From contig CAZBPC010000002.1 in the NCBI GenBank assembly GCA_964493715.1, positions 73,637 to 137,636 of the forward strand: a DNA stretch of 64,000 bases. Direction: 5' to 3'. Numbering within the stretch: position 1 is the stretch's first letter; every line of letters begins with the position of its first letter. A model generated the notes under the pieces. That model saw nothing but the letters and a program-made list of their open reading frames with translations. It was not told the DNA's origin and made no database searches. A program made the position numbers and the translations under genes. Source of the DNA: an uncultured archaeon. Its GTDB lineage: Archaea > Asgardarchaeota > Lokiarchaeia > Sigyniarchaeales > SOKP01. Below are positions 11,058 through 46,152 of this stretch, in pieces.

Positions 11058-12244
11058 ATGGCTAAAAATGTAAAGCGAATAGGAATTTTAACGGGTGGTG
11101 GAGTTTCATTTAAGATACATCTTTTTGAACCACAGACTGTCCCGGATTAAATTCAGTGATTTATGGGATAATGCTGAAAGCTTACGATGCGGATGTAGAA
11201 TGCGTAGGAATTCTAAAAGGATGGAAAGGTTTTGTTGAAAATTTAACGATTCCCTTAAACATTGCAGAACATGACGATCTTCATACCAAGGGAGGGACAA
11301 TATTGTATACAAGTCGTACTAATCCATTTAAAGGAGTTGAGGCTAAAGAGGAAAAAGCAAAGCAATTAACTAATCAATTCAATGTGTTAGGTATAGATGC
11401 ATTAATTGCTATCGGTGGAGATGATACTCTTGGAGTAGCAGATACCATGTATAAAATTGCTAATGCAAATGTAGTAGGGGTTCCAAAAACGATAGATAAT
11501 GACTTGAAGGGTACTCATTACACTTTTGGGTTCTGGAGCGCTGTACAATTAGCTTCTAATGCGATGGATAATCTCACAACAACCGCACGTTCACACCAGC
11601 GTGTTTTTGTAGTTGAGATTATGGGAAGAGATGCTGGTTTTTTAACCATGTATAGTGGAATTTCAGCAGGAGCTGATATAATATTGGTTCCTGAAACCCC
11701 CTTTAGTTTAGAAAAAGATATTGTTGACGTACTCAAAAAAAGAGCTAATGCTGGGTATAAATATCACATCATTGCCACATCTGAAGGAGCTCATCCTCAT
11801 ATCGATTCATTAAATCGAGATTTCAAGACAATTTCAAAGGAAACAATTGATAAATTACCTAAAGATACATTTGGGAATCCTTTATTAGCAAAGTTAAACA
11901 TTTCACAAATTATCGTTGATGAATTAAATTTAAGAGACGATCTAAAAGAAGTATTTCTCCAAAATGACGTCGAATTCGAATGCAGGAGCGTAGTTTTGGG
12001 ACATACAATGCGAGCTGGAACACCTAATTCGTTCGATAGAATTTTGGGATTGAGATTTGGATTAGCAGCCATGAATATGGTTTTAGAGTCTAAATTTGGG
12101 AACATGGTTTCGCTTCAAGGTAATAAAATTAAAACCATGCCGCTTTCGGAAGGGGTAAAAAAGAAATATATTACCTCAGATAGTGATAAAATGGAATTAA
12201 GAGATTTACTTGTAAAAGTGCGGTATCTATCGAAACAAAAATAG
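11058..12244 (+). CDS. pfp: PPi-dependent phosphofructokinase (PfkA superfamily), 384 aa after removal of intron 11104-11135
   Basis: Spliced N-terminus MAKNVKRIGILTGGGDCPGLNSVI; GGTILYTSR, GGDDT and PKTIDND (Asp/Lys signature of PPi-type enzymes), EIMGRDAG, LGHTMRAG. Confidence 0.9.
11104..11135 (+). other. 32-nt bulge-helix-bulge (archaeal tRNA-type) intron in pfk mRNA
   Basis: Central helix GTGG 11098-11101 / CCAC 11130-11133; bulges AGT 11102-11104 and AGA 11134-11136; inner stem TTCA/TGAA plus AAGA/TCTT hairpin; removal gives GGA GAC TGT (G-D-C). Confidence 0.88.
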
Positions 12245-12266
12245 AATTTTACGTCATTTTTTATAT

Positions 12267-12350
12267 TTATCCGAACTGCTTTTCTTCTTCCACATCGCTA
12301 TCAAGAGTATTTTTCTCTAAATATCTGTCAAGCCCATTTTACGTTAGAAT
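12267..12350 (-). pseudogene. Diverged remnant of the acyl-CoA dehydrogenase 3' end
   Basis: Translates to ..LDRYLEKNTLDSDVEEEKQFG*, versus ..[21 protein letters not shown] of gene 13709-14953. Confidence 0.8.
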
Positions 12351-12450
12351 ACCACTTCCAGAAGGGGTAAAAAAGAAATATATTACCTCGGATAGTGATA
12401 AAATGGAATTAAAAGATTTGCTGGTAAAAGTTAGAGATTCATCTAAAAAA
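12349..12450 (+). repeat. Diverged direct repeat of the pfk 3' end (12137-12244)
   Basis: 12361-12432 versus 12149-12220: 5 mismatches in 72 nt, 4 of them synonymous; encodes EGVKKKYITSDSDKMELKDLLVKV. Confidence 0.9.
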
Positions 12451-13614
12451 TTAAAATATTAAATCCTTAGGCCTAACATCAGGAGCTTTAAGAAGAATTA
12501 ACCCTGATATAACCGTTATACAAGCTGCTACTGCAAAAGGAGTCCATCCTATTATTTCTATTAGTGATCCTCCTCTCATTATTGTAATACTTGATAAATC
12601 TACAATATATCCCATAAATATCGGACCAAACACAAAACCTATATCTCCAATCGTACGATACACGCCCATATAAATTTCAAGTTTATCCTGAGGCGCAATA
12701 TCAGTCACATAAGCAGCTATTGGCCCTGAAAGCCCAATCAAAGCTCCATAAATAAACATAACAAAAGAAATGTAAATCAGATTTGAAGTAAAAGGAATCC
12801 AAAGGGTTACTGGTGCAGAAACGACAAGTGATAATAAAAGAGGAGTTCGTCGCCCAATTTTGTCTGAAATCAAGCCAATAGGTAACATGGTAATTGTAGT
12901 TGCAATAGCCGCTATGGTTAATAATATACCAATATCAAATTCATTTAAACCAAGGTTATTACCCGAAAAAAGTGGTACAAGAGTGTTTCGCACTCCCGTC
13001 CGTATAAAGAATAACGAAAAAATTGAGGGAAGAACTGGAATGAATGATGGATCTCTTAAACTGAACCTTACTTGATGATAGAGATCTTGAATCTTAATAG
13101 GTTCCTTTTCATTCGAATTATTCACTCTTGGCAACGTAAGAGTGGGAACGATCCCTATAGCAGATATAATAGCATAAGCAAAAAATGGAGCGTTTATACC
13201 ATATAAATCTGCAATAAAACCACCAAAACTTGGCCCAAAAATGGATCCCAATAATAAAAAACCAGAATAAATGCTCATTAAAAAACCTCGTCTTTCTGGG
13301 CTAGCAACTAATGCAATAAAAATGGTTGCAATTGTTACATAAATTGCAGAACCAAAACCTTCAATAAATCGAGCTAAAAGTAAAATCCAATAATATTGAG
13401 CTGATCCCGCCAAAATTGAGGATCCCGATATGAGTATTAATCCCAAAAGCATCAAATTCTTTTTATTATATCTTTGAGATAAGAAACCAGCTGGTAAATC
13501 AATGAACATGCGAGCAATTCCAAATGCAGACACCACAAGTCCAATAAGCGTATAATTAACATTAAAAGATTCGGCATAAAAAGGTAAAATTGGAGCAATT
13601 ATGCTTAATCCCAA
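12451..13614 (-). CDS. MFS transporter (DHA1-like); frame and first TM helix extend upstream to an ATA at 13671
   Basis: About 12 hydrophobic segments, ARFIEGFG, GLISDKIGRR. Confidence 0.88.
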   Translation of the reverse strand: MGLSIIAPILPFYAESFNVNYTLIGLVVSAFGIARMFIDLPAGFLSQRYNKKNLMLLGLILISGSSILAGSAQYYWILLLARFIEGFGSAIYVTIATIFIALVASPERRGFLMSIYSGFLLLGSIFGPSFGGFIADLYGINAPFFAYAIISAIGIVPTLTLPRVNNSNEKEPIKIQDLYHQVRFSLRDPSFIPVLPSIFSLFFIRTGVRNTLVPLFSGNNLGLNEFDIGILLTIAAIATTITMLPIGLISDKIGRRTPLLLSLVVSAPVTLWIPFTSNLIYISFVMFIYGALIGLSGPIAAYVTDIAPQDKLEIYMGVYRTIGDIGFVFGPIFMGYIVDLSSITIMRGGSLIEIIGWTPFAVAACITVISGLILLKAPDVRPKDLIF

Positions 13615-13708
13615 TAATACGAGAAAGGTGACAACCGCAAGGTTTAATGTGATTATAAGGTCTCTTTTTATATCACATCTCCCCTTGTTATGATTTTAGC
13701 ATAACTAA

Positions 13709-14953
13709 TTAACCAAAATGTTTTTCTTCTTGATGATCTGAATCAATTGCGTCTTTCTCAACATCACGATCAACCCATTTTTCGCTTAGTAATTCTTTAT
13801 AGTATTCATGTTGTATTATCATGTTCATGATCTCTGTGGTTCCCGTCCACAATTCACCTATCCTTGAATCGCGTAAAATTTTTTCGATGGGATAGACTGT
13901 GGTATAACCAATACCCCCCATGATCTGCATCGCATTGTTTATGACTTTCCAACAAGATTTAGTTGAAAATTTTTTCGATTCTGAGACTAACCTTCTTTGT
14001 AAAGCAGGTGGTGCTCCTGCATCAATCGTTCTAGCAGTATTAAGAACAATTGCTCTTGCAGCGTCTAAAAGTGTAATACTATCTGCAACTTTAAAATTTA
14101 TTGCTTGGAAGTTTTTTATTGTTTGTCCAAAAGCTTTTCTTTTAGTTGAATATTTGGTAGCAATATGAAGACAAGTTCTTGCTGATCCTAATGAACCCGC
14201 TGCCGTTGTGAGACGTTCAGGAACCATCATTTGATAAAAAATTCTTCCTCCTTGTCCTTCTCCCATAATGATATTCTCTTTCGGTACTTGAACATTTGTA
14301 AATTTGAGTCTTCCAGCACCCCCACCTCTAGTTCCTAATAAACCATAAATGTACTCCGTTTCTACACCTTCGCTACGATCCACGATAAATAGACTAAGAG
14401 ATGATCGAGAATCCGATTTCGGATCCAAGTTAGTTTTAGCATAAACTAAAAAAAAGTCAGCTCCCTCAGCTCCCACAACAAAACGTTTTTCCCCATTCAG
14501 GATATAATAATCCCCTTCTTTAACAGCGGTGCAAGTTGCTCCAAAAAAATCAGATCCTCCTCTTGGTTCTGTTAGAGCTTCTGCAGTATACTTTTTACCC
14601 TCACACATTGGCTTCAAGTAATTTAATTTTTGACCTTCAGAGCCAAATAAATTCATGGCTTCTCCAGTAATAATAGGAAGAGAATATAAGCATGGTAATG
14701 AGCTCCCAAGTACGCCTACTTCTTCAAGAGCAACAACTTCACATTCCCAATTTAAGCCTCGACCACCAAATTCCTTGGGAAACCTTAATCCTATAAGATT
14801 TTTTTTGCCAAGATTCTGCAGGAATTCAGTTGGATAATTGATTTCTTCTTTATCCATTTTTTTAATTAAGGTGTGAGGAACATCGTCTCTTACAAATGAA
14901 CGTACTTCTTCTTTTATTTTTTTAGCATCTTCACTTATTATATAATCAAACAT
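13709..14953 (-). CDS. Acyl-CoA dehydrogenase
   Basis: [38 protein letters not shown]. Confidence 0.92.
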
Positions 14954-15175
14954 TCAAGATTCACTTGATTAATTGTATTGTTCTATGATAATATATTCAA
15001 GATTATAATTATTTTTTATTATTTATTATATGTATCAAAATTAATTCATGAATTCATTCATACTTCACTTAAAGAATCTATTTTAAGTAGAAGTCGTTTT
15101 TATTCTAGGGTATAAATATCTGAATATATATAACTATATAAAAAAGTCATAAGAAAAATTATAAGTTAACCAATT

Positions 15176-16422
15176 ATGTTTACAAAAATAAAAAAAAATT
15201 ATAAGAAATACCCAAATCCATTTAAAGTTCTGATTCTCGCCACATTCATCGATAGATTTGGAGGTTTTTTATTATTTCCCTTTTTTTCAGTGTCTCTTAT
15301 AGAACATTTTAAAGTAACAATAATTGAGGTAGGATTTTTATTTTCTATATTTGCTGGTGGAAGCATAATTGGTAGTACGATAGGAGGAGCATTAACTGAT
15401 AAATATGGCCGTCGTTCGATGCTGTTATTAGGTTTAATTTCAAGTGGAATTGGTAGTATCTTAATGGGTATAGTTAACGATTTATATCTTTTTTTATACT
15501 AGCAGCAGTTTTAGGCACATTAGGAGACTTGGGAGGTCCAGCCCGGCAAGCAATGGTTGTGGATTTACTTCCAGAAGATAGACGAGCAGATGGATTTGGA
15601 TTATTACGAGTGGCTGTAAATCTCGCAGCAGTAATGGGACCAATTCTTGGTGGAATGTTGCTAAATAGTTCATATCTGTTCTTATTTATATTAGACGCAG
15701 TATGTCGCTTAATTACTGCCTTAATTGTATTCATAGTCATTCCAGAAACAAAACCTGAAAAACCAGAAGGCAAACTGGAAGAATCTGTAATGAAAACTAT
15801 AGCTGGATATGAGGAGGTCCTTAAAGATGGATTGTATATATCATTTCTTTCCATTTCTGCTTTGACGGTACTAGTTTACATGCAAATGAGCAGTACGTTA
15901 TCGGTATTTTTGTGGGACGTGTACGAGTTTCCATTAAGCTTGTTTGGTGTGTTGTTGAGTATGAATGCGCTGATGGTGGTATTCTTTCAGTTCTTGATAA
16001 CTAGAATGACCGCAAAGTATGCACCCATGAAAATGATGGCTTTCGGCACACTTCTTTATATGATTGGTTTTGGGATGTATGGTTTTGTCTCCTTACCATA
16101 CTTGTTTTTCGTGGCTATGGCAATTCTAACAGTTGGAGAAATGATTGTAATACCCGTATCACAAGCTACAGTAGCTCATTTTGCTTCTGAAGATAAACGA
16201 GGGCGATATATGGCAGTGTTTGGTTTTCACTGGTCGATTCCAACCTTATTTGGAGTCTCAGCTGCTAGTTTTGTCTATATTTCGCTTGGTCCGAATTGGG
16301 TATGATATTTAGCTGGAATTTTATGCCTGATTGCTATCATCGGTTTTTTAATACTCAATGGTATCGCAAAAGATCGTTTTTCGAATCCGACAGAAATTTT
16401 GGTTGAAAAATTTAGTGAATAA
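15176..16422 (+). pseudogene. MFS transporter pseudogene (frameshift in T-run near 15489-15495; internal TGA at 16303-16305)
   Basis: GALTDKYGRR in the first half; the second frame continues ILAAVLGTLGDLGGPARQA; the last TM helix (YLAGILCLIAIIGFLIL) follows the TGA and runs to TAA at 16420-16422. Confidence 0.8.
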
Positions 16423-16515
16423 CAAATATTCCATTGATTTTTTTACTTTTTTTAGAGATTATTAAGGTAATATAGAGATCTATCTTAAAGTATTACGAAG
16501 GTATATATTAAAGTG

Positions 16516-16535
16516 CGTGAAAGTTTAGTTTCACG
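16516..16535. terminator. Perfect 7-bp inverted repeat between convergent genes (possible terminator or operator)
   Basis: CGTGAAA-gtttag-TTTCACG. Confidence 0.35.
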
Positions 16536-16563
16536 AATTCATTAATGTAAAAAATCTTGAATT

Positions 16564-16860
16564 TTAAATCTCGAATATTTCTTTAGCTTTTTCTTCTATA
16601 ATTTTGTTATTTACTAGATCCCATATTTCAGAGTAATAAAACTCATCATCATTTTTTACTATTAAAGGAATACTTTCTACACATGCACTCATATCGCAAT
16701 ATAGACTGTTAAAGGTCGGATTTTTCATCAAAGGATCATTAAAATCATTTGGATCTTGGTAATCAAGAATCTTATAATCAATGTTCTTATCTTTTAGCCA
16801 TTCTTTCAAGATTTCACAGAAAACACAATGCTTCTTAATAACAATTTTAAATTTAGCCAT
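16564..16860 (-). CDS. Glutaredoxin-like small protein
   Basis: CVFC after the first beta strand, cis-Pro motif ESIP. Confidence 0.6.
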   Translation of the reverse strand: MAKFKIVIKKHCVFCEILKEWLKDKNIDYKILDYQDPNDFNDPLMKNPTFNSLYCDMSACVESIPLIVKNDDEFYYSEIWDLVNNKIIEEKAKEIFEI

Positions 16861-16911
16861 AATAAAATATATTTTAGTAATAATTTAAATTTTTATTTAA
16901 AAAAACCAATG

Positions 16912-18063
16912 CTAATCTTCAATTTCAAAAATAATCTTTAAGTATTCATATTTAGAATTGAGTAATTTTAATATTTTACGAGAAAAATCTCTCAAATTTT
17001 TTGCGTGAATGGGTTTTTCTTCTGCTTGTTCATGGTAAAAATCATGCAGCATCTTTCTAGTTTCATCTGGACCATTATCTTCTAAAAATTTAACCCAATG
17101 GGTCGATATTCTACAATATATCTTCAAATTCTCATCTGGATGTTTGGATTTATCAAAAATGGAATCATTATATTTATTCAATTCACTACTCACTTTTTCA
17201 AGATGACTAGCGATTGCTAAAGAACTGCGACATAAACTGATTAAATTGGAGGTGGTTCTTGAATTTCTAGTATTTACTGCTTCTTCGAATGCACTCCAAC
17301 TTTCTAACCATTCATCTTTATGTATTCCTTCTTTTCCATCATTGATCATTGCTACATTTATAATATCGCTTAAATCAACATCATGACCTCTTTTGATTTT
17401 TTTATCAAAAATCTGTTTTAGATGTGAGCCTTCGAGAAAAGCACCTGCTCCAAAATCAAGCAATTGATTAAGATTATTTGCAGCAAATAATAATTCATTT
17501 TTTTTTTCTTCTGAGTTAAGTTTTACCCAATTAACTTTCTTTTCCCATTCTCCAGTTTTTTTATTTCTTATGAAATTACATTCCTTTAATTTCGAGTCTA
17601 AAAGACTAGTTTGGAACATCCAAAAATCAATATCATCAGTAAATCTTTTCCTTCTCCAATCTCTAGTGGTATATTTCCCAAGATATAACTTTAAAGTACC
17701 CCTAATTACGTTTAATTTCCCATTTTTCAAAGCATTACGCGCCTCTTTACAGTAATAGTGATTTGGATCATTTGAGCACAATTCTATTTTATTTAATACT
17801 TTTCTAGCTTCATTTGCAACAATATCACAAGGAATACTCCCATCAGATGGATAAGCTCTAGACCCCCCTCTTATAAAATCTTCAAATAAATCATATTCAT
17901 CATCAGGAATCGAGTACCAAGGATTATTAAAAAAAAATTTTGTAAAGACATAATGAGTGAATTGATTTTCATCTTTCCAAGTTTTTTCTACAATGGGAGA
18001 AACATCTCTAAGATTATCACCTTTTGCTCTAACATCAGCTTTTATATCCCAAATTCCATTCAT
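16912..18063 (-). CDS. Hypothetical protein, possible nucleotidyltransferase-fold domain
   Basis: 383-aa ORF; IRG...RFTDDIDF and HDVDLSDI resemble NTase motifs. Confidence 0.5.
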   Translation of the reverse strand: MNGIWDIKADVRAKGDNLRDVSPIVEKTWKDENQFTHYVFTKFFFNNPWYSIPDDEYDLFEDFIRGGSRAYPSDGSIPCDIVANEARKVLNKIELCSNDPNHYYCKEARNALKNGKLNVIRGTLKLYLGKYTTRDWRRKRFTDDIDFWMFQTSLLDSKLKECNFIRNKKTGEWEKKVNWVKLNSEEKKNELLFAANNLNQLLDFGAGAFLEGSHLKQIFDKKIKRGHDVDLSDIINVAMINDGKEGIHKDEWLESWSAFEEAVNTRNSRTTSNLISLCRSSLAIASHLEKVSSELNKYNDSIFDKSKHPDENLKIYCRISTHWVKFLEDNGPDETRKMLHDFYHEQAEEKPIHAKNLRDFSRKILKLLNSKYEYLKIIFEIED

Positions 18064-18191
18064 TTGAAATTCTTTTTAGTTTAATATTACTAATAAAATT
18101 AAATGAACAAACCAAACTTAAATCTTTTTTCTATAAAATAAAGAAGTAATCAAGCATATAGTATAAATAGAATATCTATTTCTTTCTCAAT

Positions 18192-18875
18192 ATGAAAGAA
18201 CTCTTTTCAGTTTTTGTATATGCACCTTGGGATAAGCTCAAAACAAAGAAGCTAACAGAAATTAGATTATTATCTCTCAAAAGCATATTTGAAAAATATC
18301 CCGTAATTGAACGGAAATTTTTTGATGATCTATCAGAAAACATTAGCAAAAACATCCATTATTCTTGGTTCGAATGTATTAAAAGAATTGTAGGCCCTGA
18401 CAAAGAAGATTATGAAATTCAAAGTTGGAATATTATTTGGGCAATGGATACGGATAATAGAATCTACCAATTCTTATTCCAAAAACTAGAGGATTCTGAT
18501 GAATCTCAAGCAATTATGGTTGGTTTGGCTCCTCCAGAGCTTGGGAAGTTATTTTCAGAATATAGAGATGATGCAATTCTTAGGATTTTATCCGTATTGA
18601 ATAATCCAACAAAATTAAAATTCTTGATGGGATTAGCTCCAAAAGGCATATCAATAGCTCAAGAACAACAACTTATACAGGCTAATAAAAATAATCTGGA
18701 CAAGATCAACTTCGTAAACTCACTAAAAGAACTACCAAACATCCAAGGGCAATGGTTTTTTCCTCGTAATCCAATGTGTCCATTTTGTAAAGGATTGCTG
18801 GTTGAGAAAATGGATTATGATATTAGTTGTCAAAAGCTAGTGTGTCCTCAATGCAACTATGAAAGAAAGAAATAG
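18192..18875 (+). CDS. Hypothetical protein with C-terminal Zn ribbon
   Basis: CPFC...CPQC at the C-terminus. Confidence 0.65.
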   Translation: MKELFSVFVYAPWDKLKTKKLTEIRLLSLKSIFEKYPVIERKFFDDLSENISKNIHYSWFECIKRIVGPDKEDYEIQSWNIIWAMDTDNRIYQFLFQKLEDSDESQAIMVGLAPPELGKLFSEYRDDAILRILSVLNNPTKLKFLMGLAPKGISIAQEQQLIQANKNNLDKINFVNSLKELPNIQGQWFFPRNPMCPFCKGLLVEKMDYDISCQKLVCPQCNYERKK

Positions 18876-35520: not shown

Positions 35521-37101
35521 TCATCCCAAACGGTATTTGTAATATTGTTGATAAATATTTAACCAACTATTATATCTACTAACTAATTTCTGTATCATCA
35601 ATTTTCGTGGTTCAAATTTATTTATGAGTTTTAGTTCATAATTTCGAGATTTGAGATCATCCAATGATCTTATTCTATTTGCAGCAACATCACACAACAC
35701 AAGCATTCCTTGGATAGAGCATTCATAATTAGTAGATGAGATAATAGGAGATTGGAGAAGGTCTGAAAATCGTTGTAAAAGGGTCAAATTTCGAGTAATC
35801 CCTCCCATAAATGCATAAAACGGATTCTGAATTTTTGCTAGTTTAATGAGATATTCAATATTTCGCATTATGGCAAACTGTATATTATCGAAAACTGCAG
35901 CAATAAATGCATTCTTTTTATGAAAAACCTCTTCCACACCTCCAGGACTTTCAAAATGAAAAAATCCAGGTGGAAGGCCCATTTGAGTGCTTGCAAATGG
36001 TGAAGGACCAAGTAAAGAATATACTGACGATTCTCTTATTTGGTCTGAAGTTGCTTGTAATTCGAATTGGTCATAATGTTCAAATGCTTCATCTAATTTT
36101 TGAAATTTTTGTTTTGAGGTCGAACTCTCTTCTCCATAAAATAAATTTGCCGCCCATTTCAATAACTGTCCTGTTATTCCAGTACTAGCCTCTAAATAAT
36201 AATGATCGAATAAGTCCTTACAAGCAAATATTCCACTCCATGTTTTTTCCTCGGGATCAAAATAAGGGTTTTTTGTTACTGCTTGCACTGGTGAAGTAGT
36301 GCCTAAAACAGCCCCAATTGAGCCTATTTCCATGCATTGGCAACCTAACAATGCTGCTTGAGTATCTGAAATTCCTGCAACCAATTGAACTTCAGAATTA
36401 AGGTCAAGTTCTTTTTGATACTGCTCAGAGACCGTACCAATTATTTCACCTGGTAAAACTGGCCATGGAAAAAAATATTCTGGTAAATCAAGAAGATCCT
36501 CCCAAGCAGGATGCCATAATTTTGTTTCTATATCAAAGAATCCAGATTCTCCTGCGCTGGTTATATTGGCATGAATCTCGCCCCCAAATTTTACCAAAAT
36601 CCAACTATCCATAGGAAGGTATTGTGAAATCTTATGGTACCTCTCCTCTTCTTTTTTCTCTTCTTTAAAATATTTATATCGAGCTGGTAAAAATAATAAA
36701 GAGGGAAAATGTCCAGAACTCTCATAAAATGATTTTCCCGTTCTTTCTAAGAATTCTTTGTCAATTTCTTCGGCATAATCGATTCCCCTAAGTTCAAAAC
36801 TTGCTCCAATATAAACAGCATTATTGTTTTCATCAGTAAATACGCAACTTGGACGCATTGAGGTGGCAGTAATATATTTTAAGTCTTTTGGATTAATTTT
36901 TGCAGCATTTATAGTAACTTTTGTAAGCTCAATCAAATTATTCCAATAATTCTTGTAATTCCATTCACGGTGGAAGCCATCCTTACTTTGAACAATTTTG
37001 CTTCTCCAAGATTTTAAAGCGATAATGTTCCCTGAATCATCTGCTATTGCACACTTCAATAGAGTACTGCCAGAATCATAAACCATCCGATATTCTGTCA
37101 T
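35521..37101 (-). CDS. FGGY-family carbohydrate kinase (LsrK/YoaC-like, divergent)
   Basis: DSGST, TSMRPS, SAGESG, SDTQAALLG, GTT, MGGITRN. Confidence 0.85.
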   Translation of the reverse strand: MTEYRMVYDSGSTLLKCAIADDSGNIIALKSWRSKIVQSKDGFHREWNYKNYWNNLIELTKVTINAAKINPKDLKYITATSMRPSCVFTDENNNAVYIGASFELRGIDYAEEIDKEFLERTGKSFYESSGHFPSLLFLPARYKYFKEEKKEEERYHKISQYLPMDSWILVKFGGEIHANITSAGESGFFDIETKLWHPAWEDLLDLPEYFFPWPVLPGEIIGTVSEQYQKELDLNSEVQLVAGISDTQAALLGCQCMEIGSIGAVLGTTSPVQAVTKNPYFDPEEKTWSGIFACKDLFDHYYLEASTGITGQLLKWAANLFYGEESSTSKQKFQKLDEAFEHYDQFELQATSDQIRESSVYSLLGPSPFASTQMGLPPGFFHFESPGGVEEVFHKKNAFIAAVFDNIQFAIMRNIEYLIKLAKIQNPFYAFMGGITRNLTLLQRFSDLLQSPIISSTNYECSIQGMLVLCDVAANRIRSLDDLKSRNYELKLINKFEPRKLMIQKLVSRYNSWLNIYQQYYKYRLG

Positions 37102-37192
37102 CGTTTTACCACTATTAAAAAATTAAAATATTTTATTCTATATTAAGAATATTTCCTATATCTAATTCTAACAAATAAACATAGATTAATAT

Positions 37193-37546
37193 TTACTGAT
37201 AAAGTACACAAACCATTATTGTAAAACCCCAGGGTGAATTTTCCTTTTCATAAATCAAGCTTTTGACTTCTTCATGCGGGGCTATTCCGGTATTATCTGA
37301 AAATAATTTCCAAGCAAGTTTTCCTATTATTTCTTCTTCCTGCAAGATTTCAAGAAAATTCTGCTTAATTCCCCCCCAATATATCCGCTTTACGTCCATA
37401 ATTTCCTTTAATTCAGATAATTCCATTAATCCTGCAAAAATGAGATTTTCTGTAACATTAGAGAAATGTGTAATAAAATTAGCTGAAACATCTTGAGGGG
37501 ATCCCTCATTTCGATCATATAAAAATACTAATCCAATCGCTTTCAT
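37193..37546 (-). CDS. Hypothetical protein
   Basis: 117-aa ATG-started ORF filling the intergenic space. Confidence 0.6.
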   Translation of the reverse strand: MKAIGLVFLYDRNEGSPQDVSANFITHFSNVTENLIFAGLMELSELKEIMDVKRIYWGGIKQNFLEILQEEEIIGKLAWKLFSDNTGIAPHEEVKSLIYEKENSPWGFTIMVCVLYQ

Positions 37547-37773
37547 GATGTTATAGAAATGAATTATGTTAATTATATTCAGTAATTTAGAGTAATTATA
37601 ACTTGAGGTTATTATTTAAAACTTCTTATCCAAAAAGTAAACCATAAAGTAAAAATCAGAAAATATTTGTTTATACAATTATATTTTATTATCAAAGCAA
37701 ATAAGGTATTATTAATATTTATGAAATGAATTAATAACCTTACTTACCTGAAATTAATAATTAAGTTGATTAC

Positions 37774-38229
37774 ATGTCAGAAATAATGGATAAATTTATT
37801 GGAAAACTTTATGATAAAGCTGAAATTGAAAATTGGAATTTACCAGAAAAGACTAAGGAACAAATTGGTCTAAAAGAAAATAAGTACTTTTTTTTAACCT
37901 CTTCACGAGAGGAAAAACACGGAATGAGGCATGTACATTTCTCCATATATCCAACAAAGTATGAAAAGGTTTATTTTATTTTTGTTAAATTGCCAGAAAT
38001 TAAGCCTCAAATATTGAGCAATGTATTAAATTATTTAAAAAAGTCTAATTTTGATATATTCAACTCAACGGGTTTTTGCTCTCAGGAAAATACCTGCTTT
38101 TTCGGTATATACTTCTCCTTTTATGAAGATCTTAATAAAGGCAAAATAATTGGAGATGTGGGTGAATTTAAAAACATCCAAGAAGTTAAATTATTTAAAT
38201 ATACTTGTATAGGATGTAATGAAGAATAA
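37774..38229 (+). CDS. Hypothetical protein (ACT-like C-terminal half possible)
   Basis: 151-aa ORF; LPEIKPQILSNVLNYL pattern. Confidence 0.55.
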   Translation: MSEIMDKFIGKLYDKAEIENWNLPEKTKEQIGLKENKYFFLTSSREEKHGMRHVHFSIYPTKYEKVYFIFVKLPEIKPQILSNVLNYLKKSNFDIFNSTGFCSQENTCFFGIYFSFYEDLNKGKIIGDVGEFKNIQEVKLFKYTCIGCNEE

Positions 38230-38655
38230 TTACCAAAACGCTTTTTGGAATTTTTGAATCGTTTCTTCCAAACTGTCCTCGATTTCTTTTTCAAAATCAT
38301 GGAAAATTGCTACATCTCCTTCCCACGTTTCCAAGATTTCTATTGGATATAAATCGAAAAAATGGTCAACTATTGATTGCAATTCTTCAATTACTTTTTT
38401 CATTTTGATTTTATTAGAAGAACTTGCCACGAATAGTATGTCATATTTCCTTATTAGAGTATATCTTTTGTCTTGTAATTCAAAATTAGAAAGCCCCTCA
38501 TTTGTTAATTCTTCTGCGAAGGAATTTAAAGCACTCATAAGTCCCCCAAATAGCTGATCATCAAATTTTTCATTAAAAATACGATGATATAGCACGATAC
38601 CTCCTTCCGAAATTATATAGAGATCTTGCAAGACCTTAACCAAGATATTCACCAA
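38230..38655 (-). CDS. Longin-like domain protein (Asgard eukaryotic signature protein)
   Basis: LYIISEGGIVLY...LFGGLMSALNSFAEEL...LFVA...FFDLY...FHDFEKEI. Confidence 0.7.
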   Translation of the reverse strand: MVNILVKVLQDLYIISEGGIVLYHRIFNEKFDDQLFGGLMSALNSFAEELTNEGLSNFELQDKRYTLIRKYDILFVASSSNKIKMKKVIEELQSIVDHFFDLYPIEILETWEGDVAIFHDFEKEIEDSLEETIQKFQKAFW

Positions 38656-38743
38656 AAAAATTGATGTATGAATATTATATTTTGAAAACGTCTTAAATTT
38701 ATAGTTACAAAATTAAAATTAAAAAAAAATTTTTCGCTAGTAT

Positions 38744-39487
38744 TTATTCGCTTGTTTTTGGCCGAATATACCCAAAATATGACGCTATCATTCCTAACAA
38801 CACGAAAATCCACGCTAAAAAATAAAACGGAGAAAATCCAGGTCCACCAAAAAGGATTAATAGTCTATCGATCAAAAAATTAAACGGTACTAGTATATAA
38901 AAGATGGACATCAAAGCTAATGATATAAATGCATTTTTGAAAGTTTTCCCTTCAGCTAACTTGAAAGATTTATATGAACTTATAAAGAATGGAACATAAA
39001 TCATTGCCATGAATAGGAATATCAACAAGAATGCGAATGCATCCAGCAGAGTATTTCCTCTTTCATATACTAGCAAACTGAATGTTAAAGTGATAATCCC
39101 GTAAATAATCACGATTATCTTATGAACTCGATTGTATCCCTTTTCGAAAACATTTACTTTCAAAACATAGGATATAAAAATAGCAATAGTTAGGAAGAAA
39201 AAACTAAATCGAAAATCAGTGATTCTCAAAACGAACCAAGACTGTATAGTTCCCGGATCAGCAAGAGTAGTATTGTAAATGTATTCTACTCCCGAATATA
39301 ATACTAGAACTTTAGATAACCATGAAAAGATTATAGCAATCATGTAAAACAAGAATATCAAGAATAAGTATAGAGTAAATTGGTGTTTTTTTTGGAAATA
39401 TTTCATTAATATTAAACCAAGTATAAATGCAGCTATGATAATAATCGTTGTTTCAAATACCATGCCAATGAATATTAAATCGGGCAT
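38744..39487 (-). CDS. Multi-pass (about 7 TM) membrane protein
   Basis: Seven hydrophobic segments ending in YFGYIRP. Confidence 0.7.
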   Translation of the reverse strand: MPDLIFIGMVFETTIIIIAAFILGLILMKYFQKKHQFTLYLFLIFLFYMIAIIFSWLSKVLVLYSGVEYIYNTTLADPGTIQSWFVLRITDFRFSFFFLTIAIFISYVLKVNVFEKGYNRVHKIIVIIYGIITLTFSLLVYERGNTLLDAFAFLLIFLFMAMIYVPFFISSYKSFKLAEGKTFKNAFISLALMSIFYILVPFNFLIDRLLILFGGPGFSPFYFLAWIFVLLGMIASYFGYIRPKTSE

Positions 39488-39680
39488 ATTAAAATCATAA
39501 AATTTGCATTATTTATACTTTAAGTTTACCAAATAAAATAATTCAAGTTGGATTAAAACTTTAGTATAAATATTATAATATTAATTTAAAACATTTTTTT
39601 GATTCCGAACCACATCAAAAATTTTATTGCTTTTTCAATATTTTAAGCTATTGTATCAATAAATCTATTATACCTCCAAT

Positions 39681-40604
39681 ATGATATCCACTATGACAAC
39701 ATACCATCAGGAATTGAAATTAGCAACCGAAATTGTAAATACAGCTTCAAAAATAACTGAATGGTTTAGAAATGTTGGTTTCCAATCTTTTCAGAAAGAG
39801 GATGATTCTCCTGTAACTATCGCTGATTATGCGAGTCAAATATATATAATTAATAAGATCTCGGAACAATTTCCCGAAGATCAAATAATTGCTGAAGAAG
39901 ATGATAATTCTTTTTTTGATAATGAAGTAAAAAGATCGATTAATTCTTGTTATAAATCTTTAAATATTGGAGAAAATATCAATATTGAAAAAGCAATAAT
40001 CGCGAAAGATAACAAAAAAACCTCCCGTCAGTGGACAATAGATCCAATTGATGGTACAAAAGGGTTCCAGAAAGGATTATCATATGCAATAGGTATAGGG
40101 TTTATGATAAATTCCGATCCAAAAATATGTGCAATCGCAGTTCCAAACTATAAGAAATATGGTAAAGCAATTTTTATCGCTGAAAAAGATAACGGTAGTA
40201 AAGTTGCTATTGAAGCTTTAAAGTTCAAAAAAATTAAAGTAAGTAATCAATTTCAGCTTAAACAAGCTAAATTGTGCCATTCATTGCACTATGATGAACC
40301 TTGGGTTATGGATTTTGCATCACGGGCGGAAATAACAAATTTCATTCAAATAGACAGTATGGTTAAATTTTGCATGGTTGCCGATGGAACTGCTGACTTG
40401 TATGTAAAACCAATGAATCCAAGTAGATCTTTTGTTTGGGATTTCCTTCCTGGAATCTTGTTAGTGCAAGAAGCTGGAGGAACTGTTACTGATTTGCGTG
40501 GAAACTCAATTGAATTTAATGATGATAAATGCATACTAACAACACCCGGATTGATCGCATCTAATTCTATAATCCATAGTGATATTATAGCAAAATTAGC
40601 GTGA
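39681..40604 (+). CDS. Inositol monophosphatase family, 3'(2'),5'-bisphosphate nucleotidase-like
   Basis: KEDDSPVTIADY, AEE, IDPIDGTKGF, WD..G..LVQEAGG. Confidence 0.88.
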   Translation: MISTMTTYHQELKLATEIVNTASKITEWFRNVGFQSFQKEDDSPVTIADYASQIYIINKISEQFPEDQIIAEEDDNSFFDNEVKRSINSCYKSLNIGENINIEKAIIAKDNKKTSRQWTIDPIDGTKGFQKGLSYAIGIGFMINSDPKICAIAVPNYKKYGKAIFIAEKDNGSKVAIEALKFKKIKVSNQFQLKQAKLCHSLHYDEPWVMDFASRAEITNFIQIDSMVKFCMVADGTADLYVKPMNPSRSFVWDFLPGILLVQEAGGTVTDLRGNSIEFNDDKCILTTPGLIASNSIIHSDIIAKLA

Positions 40605-40628
40605 TCTGAAATTTTTAAGAAAAATGGT

Positions 40629-41717
40629 TTACCCTTTTAAATAACTAAGTAAATCTTTTTGAATAATGGTTGATCTCGAAATCAAATTCGATAATTTGAT
40701 TCCAACTAATCTAATTTTACGTTTGTCATTGGAAAATTCTTTAAACAATTCGAGAATTATCTTGATTGTTTTTTCCTTGTTTTGTGTATGATTTGGAAGC
40801 GTCTTAGATCGAGTAAATGTTAAAAAACCTTCCAGTCGAATTTTTAAAGTAATTGTCTTATAGGAAATATTATCATTCTTGACTTTTTTATGGAGTTTTT
40901 CATTAATTTCATCAAATTTTGTTAATATCTCTTGAAAATCATTTGTATCTTTAAAAAATGTTCTCTCCTTGCTTATCGATTTTCTTTCCCTCATTGAATT
41001 CTTTACTTCTCTTTTATCCATTCCATTCGCAATATCCCAAACCCATTTTCCATTTTTTCCGAATTTTTCTATCATTCTGTGAAGGGGAGTATTAATTATG
41101 TCTCCGATAACTTTAATTCCTTGGTTATTATAATATTCTTTGGATTTTTTTCCAATTCCAGGAATGCGAGTAATATCCAAGGGTGATAAGAATTCCTTGA
41201 ATTTCTCTGGTTTTACAATAGTGATACCATTAGGCTTTTTAAAATCTGAAGCTATTTTTGCAATTGATTTAGTAGGAGCACATCCAATTGATAGGGTTAT
41301 TCCCACCTCATCTAAAACTCTACTTTGAATTTCTTTTGCAACAATGAATGCATCCTCATAAGTTCTGCAGTTTTCAGAGATATCTATATATGCTTCATCA
41401 ATACTAACTTGCTGAAAAATTGAACTGACTGAATTTATGATTCCCATTACCTTTTCTGAAGCTTCTTGGTATTTTGTAAAATCAGGACGTAAATATATAC
41501 CATAAGGGCATTTTTTATATGCAATTGAAATTGGCATTGCGGAGTGAAGACCATATTTTCTCGCTTCATAATTACACGTAGAAACCACTCCCCTTCCTTT
41601 TCCAGCTTTAGGATCTGCTCCAACTATAACGGGCTTATCTTTATAATCTGGATTATCTCTAACCTCAACAGCAGCGAAAAAAGCATCCAAATCGCAATGT
41701 AGGATTATTTGATTCAT
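40629..41717 (-). CDS. dinB: Y-family DNA polymerase IV (DinB/Dpo4)
   Basis: HCDLDAFFA, YEARKYG, SIDEAY, KPNG; C-terminal PIP-like QKDLLSY. Confidence 0.93.
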   Translation of the reverse strand: MNQIILHCDLDAFFAAVEVRDNPDYKDKPVIVGADPKAGKGRGVVSTCNYEARKYGLHSAMPISIAYKKCPYGIYLRPDFTKYQEASEKVMGIINSVSSIFQQVSIDEAYIDISENCRTYEDAFIVAKEIQSRVLDEVGITLSIGCAPTKSIAKIASDFKKPNGITIVKPEKFKEFLSPLDITRIPGIGKKSKEYYNNQGIKVIGDIINTPLHRMIEKFGKNGKWVWDIANGMDKREVKNSMRERKSISKERTFFKDTNDFQEILTKFDEINEKLHKKVKNDNISYKTITLKIRLEGFLTFTRSKTLPNHTQNKEKTIKIILELFKEFSNDKRKIRLVGIKLSNLISRSTIIQKDLLSYLKG

Positions 41718-41781
41718 ATTTTTAATTAGAGGAATTAATAACCAATTTCACAAGCATAAAGTGTTTTTATTAATATAAAAA

Positions 41782-42549
41782 ATGCCTCATCAAGAATTTT
41801 TTAATTTGGAAAGTTTAGTATTTATTGGACATAAGCAAAATCTATTTATTTCAAATATTAAAATCAAATATATGAGTTTAATTGATGAAGATCAAATGCG
41901 TTTAGTGATAGTGAACGCATCAAAAAAGATATATAGCAGAGGATTAGTTCAAGCAGGAGAGGGTAATTTAAGCCTTAGAATCCCTGGTAAAAATGAAATG
42001 TTTATCACTCCTACTTACAATACTTATGAAGACTTACAAAAAGCAAATTTAGTGCAAATCAATTTTGATGGCATCCTTGTAAATTCCACGAGACAACCCT
42101 CTTCAGAATACAGATTACATGTTGATTTATATAAAGCGCGTCCCAAGGTGATGGCAATCATCCACACTCACTCACCCTATGCTACAATGCTTTCTGTTGC
42201 TAGAATGAAAATTCCAGTTTTAATTGAAGAGCAAGTCATATTTCTTGGTGGTCATATCGATGTTTCCGAGTTTGCTTCTGCCCATACTGAAGAATTTAGT
42301 AATAATGCAATAAAAGGACTAGGAACAAGAAATGCAACTTTGATGGCTAATCATGGAGTTCTAGCTTGTGGTAAATCAATGAGTGACGCTATTAAAATGG
42401 CAGAATTAGTAGAAAAATTAGCTTGGATTTATTATGGTGCAAAATTAATGGGTGGTCCCGTAAGTATTTCTGATAAATCTTGCCCTATGTTTATTGAAGT
42501 GTTTGAAGAAAAATTTGCCACACATGAAAAGTTAATTAGTGATTGTTAG
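41782..42549 (+). CDS. Class II aldolase/adducin family protein (start probably ATG at 41872)
   Basis: GEGNLS, PSSEYRLH, HTH, NHG. Confidence 0.88.
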   Translation: MPHQEFFNLESLVFIGHKQNLFISNIKIKYMSLIDEDQMRLVIVNASKKIYSRGLVQAGEGNLSLRIPGKNEMFITPTYNTYEDLQKANLVQINFDGILVNSTRQPSSEYRLHVDLYKARPKVMAIIHTHSPYATMLSVARMKIPVLIEEQVIFLGGHIDVSEFASAHTEEFSNNAIKGLGTRNATLMANHGVLACGKSMSDAIKMAELVEKLAWIYYGAKLMGGPVSISDKSCPMFIEVFEEKFATHEKLISDC

Positions 42550-42590
42550 GTTTGAATTAGCTTTTTTAATCTTTTTTAATTTATTTATAT

Positions 42591-43265
42591 ATGGAACCAG
42601 AAAAAATTAGGGAATTGAGAAATGCTGTTGTAGATGCCGCTAAATCGATTTTTTCTAAAGGTTTGGTTGAAAATAATGAAGGTAATGTTAGCATCCGTGT
42701 TGGGAAAAATGAAGAATATTTAATTACTCCAACCGCAAATCAATATGATACACTCACCGAAGATCAGATTGTTCATATGGCTTTTGATGGAACTCCTTTA
42801 AGTTCTGGAAAATTGCCATCAAGTGAAACCAAACTACATACAGCAATTTTTAAATCAAGACCAAAAGTTCAATGCGTTATTCATACCCATTCAACCTTTG
42901 CCACAATGCTATCAGTTGTAAGAAAAGGTATCCCAATAATAATGGAGGAACAAATAATTTATTTAGGGGGGTCCATTGATGTGTCAAATTATGGAGAAGC
43001 TCATACTGATGATATTGGAGAAGTTGCCCTTAAAGCTTTAGGTTATAAGAATGGTGCGATATTAGCAAATCATGGAGTTATAGTATGTGGGAAATCGGCT
43101 TCTAATGCAATAAAAAACGCAGAATTAGTTGAAAAATTCGCAAAGATCTATTGGGGAAGCCTTCTTATTGGAGAGCCTCAACTCTTGATTGATGAGGATT
43201 TAGAAAGATTTCATAAAATGTTTCAACAATTATTTGCTAATTGCCCAAGAAAATTATTAAAATAA
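42591..43265 (+). CDS. Class II aldolase/adducin family protein (tandem paralog)
   Basis: NEGNVS, PSSETKLH, HTH, NHG. Confidence 0.88.
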   Translation: MEPEKIRELRNAVVDAAKSIFSKGLVENNEGNVSIRVGKNEEYLITPTANQYDTLTEDQIVHMAFDGTPLSSGKLPSSETKLHTAIFKSRPKVQCVIHTHSTFATMLSVVRKGIPIIMEEQIIYLGGSIDVSNYGEAHTDDIGEVALKALGYKNGAILANHGVIVCGKSASNAIKNAELVEKFAKIYWGSLLIGEPQLLIDEDLERFHKMFQQLFANCPRKLLK

Positions 43266-43281
43266 ACCTAAAGAAGAAATC

Positions 43282-44110
43282 ATGTTATTAGGGATTAGTA
43301 CTTTAGCACATTTAATAGACAATGTCTCCAAAAAAACTGGTAGTCTTTTTGATAATTTTTTTAAAGCAACAGAAGGTTGTTTTAATTTTGCTGAAGAAAA
43401 TGATATTCTTGTTGTAGAAATTGTTATAGAACCTCAGACTATCATTAGAGGTGAAAATAAACATAAATTCATTGATTTAGTTAACTCATACTCGCTTCAA
43501 AAACAAGTGCATGGACCTTATATCGATATCAATTTATGTTCTCATAATAATACTATTTCTATGGCATCAGTTGAATCATATTTAGAAACGTATAATATCT
43601 GTAAAGAAATTAATATTAATCTGATGACCGTTCATCCGGGACAAGCCAACCCCATGATGACTTCAATAGGATAATATAATAAAATACAGCTTGCAGAAGG
43701 TGTATCGAAAATATTAGACACAATTAATAATTCAGAGTTTACGATTTGCCTTGAGAATATGCCAAAAAGCACATTTATTATGCTTGATCAGAATGATATT
43801 GAAGTTGTTCTAAAGAAAATTAATCGATCTGATTTAAAATTGACCTATGATACTAGTTATTTCTATACTAATGATGGTAATATTAAGTTTTATGGGATAA
43901 ATATCATAAAATTATTAAACATGTCCACCTTGTTGAAAACTTTTCAAAATTTTCAGATACTCATCCAACCTTAGGGACTGGAAAAATTAATTTCCAAGAA
44001 ATTTTCAATCAACTCAAAAAATTTCAATATGGGGGATCTTTAATTATTGAATTAGCATCATCGATTAATCTACAAACGAGTATTCAATATATTTATCAAT
44101 TTTTAAAGTT
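43282..44110 (+). pseudogene. Sugar phosphate isomerase/epimerase (AP endonuclease family 2 TIM barrel) pseudogene
   Basis: VHGPYIDINL, TVHPG, in-frame TAA at 43672-43674, CLENMP, YDTSY, frameshift near 43890 into HVHLVEN..DTHPTLGTGKINF..LIIE. Confidence 0.8.
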
Positions 44111-44183
44111 AGTTAGAAGGGAACATTATTTTCTTTATTTTCGTTTAAAATTTATAATAAAATCTACCTTAATAATTGTAATT

Positions 44184-44576
44184 ATGAAAATAATTTCTTT
44201 GCAAATTAGCGATGATTTATTAGTTAGATTTGAAAAAGTTAGATTCAGAAGTGGATTTAATTCAAAAAGTGAAGCCTTGAGGGATGCAATTGTAAAATTC
44301 ATTGAGAATTATGAGAAATTTGAAAATCTGAATGGATATAAGATAATGACAATAAATTTGGTTTATCCATTTAAAAATATCATATCAGATGAGATTTCAG
44401 AATTATATAACCAATTCAACGCGATTATAAAAGCAATTACTGATTGGAGAATTGTAGAAAAAAAAATAGAAGTTGTATTAACAGTGGGAGAATTTGGACT
44501 TATTAAGGATTTGTATCAATCTCTGGCCAAAATAAAAGATGTATCTTGCTCAATTCATGAGATTGTTATCGATTAA
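44184..44576 (+). CDS. Ribbon-helix-helix regulator, NikR/CopG-like
   Basis: IISLQISDDLL...SKSEALRDAI plus ACT-like C-terminus lacking the NikR His ligands. Confidence 0.75.
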   Translation: MKIISLQISDDLLVRFEKVRFRSGFNSKSEALRDAIVKFIENYEKFENLNGYKIMTINLVYPFKNIISDEISELYNQFNAIIKAITDWRIVEKKIEVVLTVGEFGLIKDLYQSLAKIKDVSCSIHEIVID

Positions 44577-44585
44577 ATTGTTCAA

Positions 44586-45455
44586 TTAGTCAAATCGAAG
44601 TGAAATATCGACTTTTTCAGGAGGAAATTGGGTTAATTCACTGGAGCTTATAATATCTGGTTCAGCAATCACATAATCGACGAAATTTTCTAATGTAATA
44701 CCTCCTGAAACTTCAATTATTACCATTCCACGAACTTTATTCCTTTTCAATGTACTAATTGCATTCCCTACTTGATCAGGGGTCATATTATCGAGCATGA
44801 TGATGTCTGCCCCTAATTTAGCTGCAATTAAAACATCTTCAACCCTTTCAATTTCAATTTCAATTTTTTTTGTGAAACTAGCACTCTTTTTTATTTCTCT
44901 CATCATTTCCTCTATGTTTCCATTGTAATATTTTAAATGTGTATCTTTCAATAATATCATATCATCGAGTGAAAAACGATGTGTTTCCCCTCCACCGAGA
45001 AAAACTGCTTTCTTCTCAAAAATACGCAATCCTGGAAGCGTTTTACGTGTACATGCTATCTTTACAGCTTTTCCAGAATTTTTAATAATTTCTACATACT
45101 TACGAGTAGTAGTAGTTATGGCACTCATATGAGAGAGCAAATTTAGAGCTGTTCGTTCTCCAAATAGTATTGATTGTGTTTCTCCTTTTAGATGGGCAAG
45201 GATATCTCCTTTCTTCACTCGATCTCCATCTTCTTTAACAAGGTTCACGGATACATTTAAAATGTCATATATTAAATTCAATTCTTCTAATCCACTAATA
45301 TAACCACTGCTTTTTGCTATAACTTTTGCAGAACTAATTGCAATTTCGGGAATTATACTTGAACTCACGTCACTGAAATGACAATCTTCTTCAAGAAATT
45401 CTCTAATTTTTCTCTCTAAAATTAAGTTATTAAACTTCACTTTGATGATCACCAA
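44586..45455 (-). CDS. nadC: Quinolinate phosphoribosyltransferase
   Basis: ERTALN, TRKTLPG, HRFSL, KDTH, IMLDN, SGGIT. Confidence 0.93.
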   Translation of the reverse strand: MVIIKVKFNNLILERKIREFLEEDCHFSDVSSSIIPEIAISSAKVIAKSSGYISGLEELNLIYDILNVSVNLVKEDGDRVKKGDILAHLKGETQSILFGERTALNLLSHMSAITTTTRKYVEIIKNSGKAVKIACTRKTLPGLRIFEKKAVFLGGGETHRFSLDDMILLKDTHLKYYNGNIEEMMREIKKSASFTKKIEIEIERVEDVLIAAKLGADIIMLDNMTPDQVGNAISTLKRNKVRGMVIIEVSGGITLENFVDYVIAEPDIISSSELTQFPPEKVDISLRFD

Positions 45456-45495
45456 CTGTAGTATAATTATTATAGAATCAAATCTAATTAAAATT

Positions 45496-46152
45496 ATGCT
45501 AATGATTCAAGGTAATGAAGTATCTTTAGAAGCGGAGATTTTTCAGTCAGGAAATGAATTTAACAATACTGTAGTCTTAATATGCCATCCTCATCCTCAA
45601 TTTCTGTAGGGTTTCCTAAGAAAGGGAAAATATGGAGGATCGATGCATAATAATGTTATATCTTATATTTTCAATCATTTAGTTAAAAATGATATCTCGT
45701 GTTTACGTTTCAATTTCAGAGGTGTAGAAAGATCAACTGGAAAACATTCAGGAGGAAGTGGAGAGTTATCTGATGTTCATAGTTGTATTACATTTCTCCA
45801 AAAAAGAGAGATACAAAGGATAATAATATGTGGGTATTCTTATGGTGCCGCTATCGGATGCTCAGCTGTAAATTTTTCAGAATCAATCATAGGATTCTGC
45901 GCGATTTCTTTTCCGTGGGATTTTATGGGAAAAAATTACAAAAATCTCTCACAAACTGAAAAACCTAAACTATTTATTCAAGGGGATCAAGATTCTATTG
46001 CTAGTTTTGATAATTTCTTGTCTCATTATAATTTCTATAAGGAACCCAAAGAAAAAATTATTATCAAGGGAGCTGATCACTTCTATTGGGGATTAGAAGG
46101 AATTTTAGCAGATAAAGTGGTTAAATTTGTAAAAAAGTTCAATCCATCTTAA
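45496..46152 (+). CDS. Alpha/beta hydrolase (HPHP-x-x-GG-x-M family), 208 aa after removal of intron 45600-45629
   Basis: Spliced ..ICHPHPQYGGSMHNNV; RFNFRGV, GYSYG nucleophile, QGDQD, GADHF. Confidence 0.88.
45600..45629 (+). other. 30-nt bulge-helix-bulge intron in alpha/beta hydrolase mRNA
   Basis: Central helix TCCT 45594-45597 / GGGA 45624-45627 (one G-U); bulges CAA and AAA; inner stem TTTCT/AGAAA plus TAGG-gttt-CCTA; contains in-frame TAG at 45607-45609. Confidence 0.85.

Follow-up and report, generated by a model that had tools for sequence, protein, structure and literature searches.

Very likely bulge-helix-bulge mini-introns in protein-coding and tRNA genes of an Asgard archaeal genus

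Background

The cbf5 gene of Crenarchaeota (Aeropyrum, Sulfolobus) carries an intron that was reportedly described by Watanabe in 2002. As of 2009, archaeal pre-mRNA splicing was confirmed for cbf5 only, according to the part of PMC2738675 available to us, and our literature search returned nothing after that paper extending confirmed archaeal mRNA splicing to another gene. Here we analyse a window of 64,000 nucleotides (the whole stretch of DNA under study; contig CAZBPC010000002.1 of assembly GCA_964493715.1, positions 73,637 to 137,636) from an uncultured Asgard archaeon of the order Sigyniarchaeales, in which a phosphofructokinase (PFK) gene and an alpha/beta hydrolase (ABH) gene are each interrupted by an insert of about 30 nt. 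We consider it highly likely that these and similar inserts are mini-introns of the bulge-helix-bulge (BHB) type, 29-33 nt long, in protein-coding and tRNA genes of an Asgard (Promethearchaeota) genus, that EndA and RtcB remove them, and that they are frequently gained and lost.

In archaeal pre-tRNAs, the BHB layout is an outer helix, a 4-nt central strand, a 3-nt bulge cut after its second base, an inner hairpin, another 4-nt central strand, another 3-nt bulge cut after its second base, and again the outer helix. The cut position within the bulge (after base 2) is taken here from pre-tRNA introns. The unconventional splicing of HAC1/XBP1 depends on IRE1, uses RtcB-type ligation and acts as a stress-regulated switch; its sites are twin stem-loops with 7-nt loops at the splice sites. 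IRE1/RtcB splicing is mentioned in the retrieved part of PMC13149111, and RtcB is named 106 times in the text of PMC12779559, as far as we had it, the source on SOS splicing cited below. Asgard tRNA genes are heavily interrupted, with repeated gains, according to the accessible portion of a preprint (bioRxiv 10.64898/2026.10.13.758758); a term search of its main text returned neither "mRNA" nor "RtcB" there, and the lone "protein-coding" refers to neighbouring genes. A search of the full-text literature, with subscription journals and supplements outside its reach, yielded no account of BHB introns in protein-coding genes of Asgard archaea.

Results

The genome under study (G000) is metagenome-assembled, with 160 contigs and 3.68 Mb; the window belongs to its 143-kb contig C2, and its G+C content (~31%) is that of the genome (31%). 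Relatives were sought in 40 genomes of this order, of which 24 belong to the same genus. Positions of PFK and ABH parts refer to the window, and all these parts lie on the forward strand.

The PFK gene is split into two open reading frames (ORFs) in different frames, 11031..11150 and 11156..12244. Exon 1 (11059..11103) comprises codons 1-15 and the first base of codon 16, and exon 2 (11136..12244), reading DCPGLN and onward through the stop codon, matches Pfam PF00365 at profile positions 18-276 (E 2.9e-78). Between them lies a phase 1 insert of 32 nt (11104..11135), here called PFK-A since a second site, PFK-B, exists in the same gene of relatives. Its excision joins GGU GGA G|AC UGU CCC and yields the motif GGGDCPG, mending the broken codon 16; moving both cuts by 1 nt gives the identical product. 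The 5' strand of the central helix, GUGG (11098-11101), stands in exon 1 and pairs at all four positions with CCAC (11130-11133) near the 3' end of the insert. Bulge 1 (AG|U) begins with AG at 11102-11103, bulge 2 (AG|A) with AG at 11134-11135. After its first nucleotide the insert forms a 25-nt hairpin (11105-11129) with 8 bp. Upstream, CGGG (11092-11095) forms the exon 1 strand of the outer helix. None of 2000 shuffled introns was equally good.

The ABH gene reads as ORFs 45442..45609 and 45643..46152, split by an in-frame TAG at 45607-45609. Exon 1 (45497..45599) runs from the ATG at 45497 through CA of codon 35. Exon 2 (45630..46152) supplies the A of codon 35, continues YGGSMHNN through the stop and matches Pfam Abhydrolase_11, PF20408 (E 4.1e-9). 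The insert (30 nt, phase 2, 45600..45629) contains the TAG and consists of 1 nt, a hairpin of 23 nt with 9 bp (45601-45623), the central-helix 3' strand GGGA (45624-45627) and then AA of bulge 2. GGGA pairs at all four positions with UCCU (45594-45597) of exon 1; CA (45598-45599) belongs to bulge 1, the two bulges being CA|A and AA|A. Excision of 45600-45629 mends codon 35 and gives HPHPQ|YGGSMHNN. Again, no shuffled intron in 2000 did as well. A first-pass annotation made from the letters alone had proposed two BHB-type inserts of these very lengths at codons 16 and 35, each blocking translation, one by frameshift and one by a stop codon; both proposals are borne out, with GGGDCPG and HPHPQYGG restored. 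Of the helices it had drawn, CGGG/CCCG stands as the outer helix of PFK, paired at 100% in six alleles, and ATCCTC/GAGGAT gives way to UCCU/GGGA as the conserved pairing of ABH.

Among the relatives, intron-bearing and intron-less alleles occur at the same sites. The ABH intron is present in 16 of 22 loci of the genus and lacking in the other six as well as in eight loci of other families (16/30 overall). The PFK-A intron, diverged in sequence, is found in 6/22 genus loci; the 16 relatives whose PFK lacks it run uninterrupted through GGN GGN GGN GAY TGY CCN, again GGGDCPG. PFK-B (GG|DDT, 30 nt) is likewise occupied in 6/22 genus loci, never in G000. Pairing is kept among the alleles. Over the full BHB of the 16 ABH alleles, 90.6% of cells are paired, falling to 70% when the partners slide by one column; seven pairs have changed on both sides, with 19 such cells against 8.1+-2.5 in shuffles (0/500 reach 19), these figures, like those for PFK-A, being counts drawn from related sequences and not probabilities. 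The ABH central helix is invariant, always paired and hence uninformative for covariation, and an exon-exon outer helix, CCAYCC/GGNGG, is interrupted. In the six PFK-A alleles 100% of cells are paired, with three compensatory pairs, in a contrast that amounts to one lineage (G000) versus five others; one of the compensatory changes turns a C-G pair of the central helix into U-A through a synonymous Gly codon.

Such conservation bears on whether the split genes are simply decaying pseudogenes or assembly artefacts, with random small insertions that have no functional consequence. As the DNA stands, a frameshift or a stop does break each gene, and the genomes are assembled from metagenomes. However, the same sites bear inserts in independently assembled genomes, diverged in sequence with the pairing kept, and the flanking ORFs are intact: in 14 of the 16 ABH alleles, resolved automatically, the spliced ORF is full and reads CHPHPQYGG. 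The hosts, moreover, include rtcB (present at a single locus), RNase HII and PFK, and one precise geometry, unmatched by shuffles, recurs over the 14 inserts described below. We thus regard decay or misassembly as very improbable, although one insertion of another kind (contig C43, see below) would suit it.

In total, 14 intron sites in 13 different genes were found in this genus. Nine of them are in G000: in rtcB, RNase HII, PFK, the hydrolase, a Ras-like GTPase, an elongation factor 2 (EF-2) paralogue, a thiolase-like gene and, twice and ~70 nt apart, a DeoC/LacD aldolase. Excision joins DEAG|RG in RNase HII, with exon 2 covering Pfam positions 9-199, and WDVAGQ|P in the GTPase, the exons of which match Pfam Ras positions 1-58 and 60-160. 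The relative G017 has introns in an acyl-CoA dehydrogenase and in an amidohydrolase (exons at Amidohydro_3 positions 1-288 and 303-472); further introns of relatives lie in an Elf1-like zinc ribbon (CPN|CG) and one unknown protein. The multi-gene system suspected by the first-pass annotation is thereby supported, on a scale of a few dozen estimated cases per genome, not hundreds.

All 14 share one layout: 29-33 nt made up of 1 nt, a hairpin of 22-26 nt and 6 nt. The inner hairpin has 8-10 bp throughout, and both bulges begin mostly with A, their length of 3 nt following by construction from the ORF-restoring layout. Allowing G-U, the central helix is paired 4/4 in 12 of the 14. In the shuffle test none of 2000 randomisations was as good for 13 introns, and 3/2000 were for one. 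By minimum free energy, the PFK and ABH insert regions fold unremarkably (z -0.4 to -1.5); therefore the signal lies in geometry, not in stability. Self-splicing group I or group II introns were rejected as an identity, the inserts being 29-33 nt against a ribozyme core of hundreds of nucleotides; Rfam gave no match at gathering score in the window.

In silico excision after the second bulge base rebuilds conserved motifs and contiguous Pfam coordinates. Many introns interrupt conserved motifs, for which we claim no preference because detection needs alignable, conserved sequence. Phases 0, 1 and 2 are all represented, at positions from ~codon 12 to ~codon 330, so that the placement near the 5' end, taken from the two window cases as a general pattern, does not hold. 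Codons are split by the phase 1 and 2 introns of PFK-A, rtcB, RNase HII, ABH, aldolase-1 and aldolase-2. Since conserved residues (the PFK Asp, the RNase HII Arg) are encoded by codons that the insert splits, joining at the level of nucleic acid is required.

This last point also speaks to programmed ribosomal bypassing, or hopping, of the phage T4 gene 60 type, by which inserts would be skipped during translation. The inserts are short, form hairpins and in many cases reach a stop shortly past their 5' boundary (the TAG of ABH, a TAA in the EF-2 intron), as bypassing would have it. Yet in most of them the conserved residue is rebuilt only from bases of both sides, which is beyond a ribosome that hops from a take-off codon to a matching landing codon. 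The helix between exon 1 and intron, with two 3-nt bulges, is specific to an endonuclease substrate, and the same type of insert occurs in a tRNA gene, which is untranslated. Bypassing is therefore barely credible, and we return to introns whose removal from the messenger RNA is very probable, as the comparison of alleles suggests.

tRNA genes are affected as well. Introns are present in 13 of the 27 tRNA genes tallied by aragorn. Two candidates of our series, X2 and X4, lie in non-coding genes; X2 is tRNA-Val(TAC) (contig C2, ~62180-62290), which aragorn detects only once an insert of ~30 nt has been taken out of the D-arm region. At this tRNA-Val site the relative G023 has a different insert. 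With just 27 genes called genome-wide, further tRNA genes are probably hidden. We also observed, in the relative G019 (contig C8 ~148, locus L147), a hairpin-forming insert of 31 nt between tRNA T-arm-like sequences, probably another non-canonical tRNA intron.

Genes for the presumed splicing enzymes lie outside the window, as the first-pass annotation had stated. Two EndA homologues of ~205 aa each, both above the Pfam cut-off, are encoded on contigs C5 and C58. The alpha-like one has as its best structure match 3p1z_B, a tRNA-splicing endonuclease in the Protein Data Bank (PDB), and keeps Tyr, His and Lys; 3p1z is presumably the Aeropyrum pernix heterotetramer. In the beta-like one, alignment to 1a79 places Ser where the catalytic His would be. 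The recommended check of endA architecture and rtcB thus gives a two-subunit EndA that would fit the (alpha-beta)2 type and one rtcB locus. Asgard archaea have (alpha-beta)2 EndA, and its L1 insert is linked to broad specificity, according to the part of PMC5829648 at hand.

The single rtcB locus is on the window's own contig, ~61 kb upstream, and is itself interrupted. Its match to Pfam RtcB falls into two pieces, positions 1-47 and 48-426, which are read in different frames on either side of a BHB intron of 29 nt (contig C2:12136-12164, minus strand, locus L004) that splits the motif GVGY|DINCG; the central helix is UUGG/CCAA, the bulges are AU|A and AG|A, and the hairpin has 9 bp. Production of the ligase would then depend on ligase activity. 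Among 29 readable rtcB loci the intron is present in two, G000 and G001, and not in G022, which is 91% identical.

Other genes show the same patchiness. The EF-2 intron, whose hairpin arms vary together among relatives, is present in 4/19 loci, not in the two closest (L261 and L262, 91% identical) and yet in L250 (85% identical). In the PFK gene tree, G013, with both introns, is sister to the intron-less G017 (support 99/80); with 15 of its 27 inner branches unresolved, this tree separates the genus poorly, and only the G019/G017/G013 clade was used for gain and loss.

This distribution bears on a possible regulatory role. The first-pass annotation had suggested a switch analogous to IRE1/RtcB splicing; in the form weighed here, spliced introns would serve as a conserved switch resembling the control of HAC1/XBP1, at least at some sites such as rtcB or the hydrolase. 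Retention of eight of the nine G000 introns would stop or shift translation and so abolish the protein; the ABH intron is kept in 16/22 genus genomes with an invariant central helix; and the interrupted rtcB makes production of the ligase hinge on its own activity. Against this, the rtcB and EF-2 introns differ between the closest relatives, the PFK introns are dispersed over the gene tree, no sensor component came to light, and the rtcB loop would, by our reasoning, give positive feedback instead of homeostasis. Turnover through gain and loss is therefore the better fit to a presence that is so patchy among close relatives. The introns are probably not conserved switches, a role that we rate as unlikely even for those two genes; most likely they arise and vanish frequently as tolerated or selfish elements.

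Three side observations concern the PFK and EF-2 genes. A free-standing LAGLIDADG homing-endonuclease-like ORF (window 10017-10973, forward strand; Pfam PF14528 and PF00961) ends 85 nt before the PFK start; unaligned in the syntenic DNA of five relatives, this ORF looks like a recent insertion. As a general partner of the introns it was rejected, since it is the sole such ORF in the whole genome. G000 has two EF-2 paralogues, 33% identical (C1:99256-101256 and C76:3150-5336), the C76 copy being the one with the intron. In two EF-2 loci of relatives the match spans 2390 nt (L258, 1501-3890) and 2235 nt (L265, 1501-3735) against 2061 nt; these genes hold further, larger insertions of ~329 nt and ~174 nt.

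The number of introns in the genome was approached by comparison. Syntenic contigs of eight relatives set against the window's 143-kb contig revealed the RNase HII intron in G000, introns in relatives and the inserts in tRNA-like genes. The whole of G000 was then compared with 1.66 Mb of the relative G017, with 869 kb aligned; this added the Ras-like GTPase, EF-2 paralogue, thiolase-like and aldolase introns in G000. A protein-level pass with tblastn (1264 G017 ORFs, 806 with an ortholog-like match) recovered the same eight introns in seven genes and no additional BHB case; PFK-A escaped it, since the first exon there has just 15 codons. Such introns thus occur in about 1% of comparable genes; extrapolated from 0.87 Mb to 3.68 Mb, this would amount to a few dozen per genome, a number that rests on only ~45% of one relative's genome and is biased low, as an intron that G017 also has does not show up in the comparison.

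Other insertions of 21-66 nt in the tblastn comparison did not fit the BHB geometry, and we read them as ordinary protein indels. Tested for that geometry, the insertions at C135:1183 and C67:13259 gave no fit, and those at C59:4068 and C18:23317 no convincing solution. On contig C43 (~4464, minus strand) an insertion of 27 nt, seen against the G017 orthologue (39% identity), contains two in-frame stops and has no BHB solution; it may be a pseudogene, an element of a different kind or a misalignment.

Discussion

In the mechanism that we propose, the last bases of exon 1 would pair in the pre-mRNA with four bases close to the intron's 3' end, forming the 4-bp central helix. The intron body would fold into a hairpin of 8-10 bp, leaving two 3-nt bulges on opposite strands. 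A heteromeric EndA, whose alpha subunit is catalytic and whose beta subunit is without the catalytic His, would cut each bulge after its second base, and RtcB would join the exons, restoring the reading frame and often rebuilding a split codon.

Several results weigh against this picture. Cleavage and ligation in vivo are steps that we infer from comparative evidence, and the covariation, as said, comes from related alleles. The outer helix has 0-5 contiguous base pairs and is weak or interrupted at most sites, in ABH and PFK-A longer yet interrupted; judged by it, the BHB here is a relaxed motif. The constant helix is that between exon 1 and the 3' part of the intron, and the idea of self-complementary exon codons as proto-splice sites falls with this. 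Even the central helix is incompletely paired in PFK-B (2/4) and aldolase-2 (3/4), and cleavage there therefore needs an enzyme of relaxed specificity. Aldolase intron 1, in frame and free of stops, could simply be translated, so a block of translation is no general rule. EF-2 was dropped as proof of an essential host because of the second paralogue. Finally, the base of the genome-wide number is narrow and motif scans of the whole genome do not bring the introns out. The first scan combined the central 4-bp helix, the inner stem and ORF joining, with 11 frame-shifted or shifted-cut decoys; the true cut geometry (36,650) was not above the decoys (35,920-37,936). Stricter scans gave 592 versus 570-615 and 40 versus 37-46, and a recalibrated one (hairpin >=8 bp, length 26-36 nt, central helix >=3/4) gave, at dG <= -3, 531 versus 585-625.

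An excess of BHB motifs over controls had been the test set beforehand, its absence counting towards refutation, and by that measure the outcome is negative: no excess over decoys was seen at any stringency. We judge this test to be without power for a few dozen cases, because introns known from genome comparison are inseparable from its background. That background consists of hairpins close to the boundaries of genes and, at 31% G+C, swamps a few dozen real cases. A hairpin scan of the window alone, with 100 matches listed, missed both true introns at the thresholds used. The motif scans do argue against many hundreds of introns.

On balance, it seems to us about as probable as not that a few dozen BHB mini-introns of ~30 nt per genome have colonised protein and tRNA genes, turn over fast and interrupt core genes including that of the RNA ligase, with mRNA splicing by protein enzymes as a routine process. 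If ~1% of genes are spliced in this way, gene callers mis-annotate the hosts as split, truncated or frameshifted, and counts of completeness and pseudogenes are biased. The closest prokaryotic relatives of eukaryotes would then tolerate introns in coding genes, which bears on the origin of intron-rich genes and of RtcB-type cytoplasmic splicing (HAC1/XBP1, SOS splicing); this genus would show, in living members of the lineage closest to eukaryotes, how introns invade coding genes, and non-spliceosomal mRNA splicing that depends on RtcB might have its evolutionary root here. With introns polymorphic inside a single genus, the gain and precise loss of BHB introns can be studied in a tractable system, and the rtcB intron makes the self-dependence of the ligase testable.

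Among known systems, SOS splicing of animal DNA transposons is alike in that base-paired inserts leave mRNAs independently of the spliceosome; it differs in occurring in animals, in being triggered by inverted terminal repeats of far larger elements and in an endonuclease that is different or unknown, as far as the retrieved text of PMC12779559 goes, and the relation is one of analogy only. The splicing of HAC1/XBP1 likewise removes a short mRNA intron without the spliceosome, and its RtcB-type ligation alters the reading frame; there, a kinase/RNase, IRE1, takes the place of EndA and twin stem-loops that of the BHB, and in our case no regulation is evident. Closer are the BHB introns of archaeal tRNA and rRNA, those at non-canonical positions or with relaxed motifs included, which have the same motif and the same predicted enzymes, in so far as the available part of PMC5829648 covers them; here, in contrast, the hosts are mRNAs, and the outer helix is drawn from coding sequence and often weak. 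Closest is the crenarchaeal cbf5 intron (Yokobori 2009, PMC2738675, as far as available): a tRNA-type BHB intron in a protein gene, with a hetero-oligomeric endonuclease, gained and lost among relatives. Its splicing was demonstrated by experiment, whereas we infer ours. It concerns one gene, whereas the present introns occupy at least 14 sites in 13 genes of one genus, nine of them in one genome, and are set apart by their near-uniform size of ~30 nt, their Asgard lineage and the placement of one of them in the gene of the ligase.

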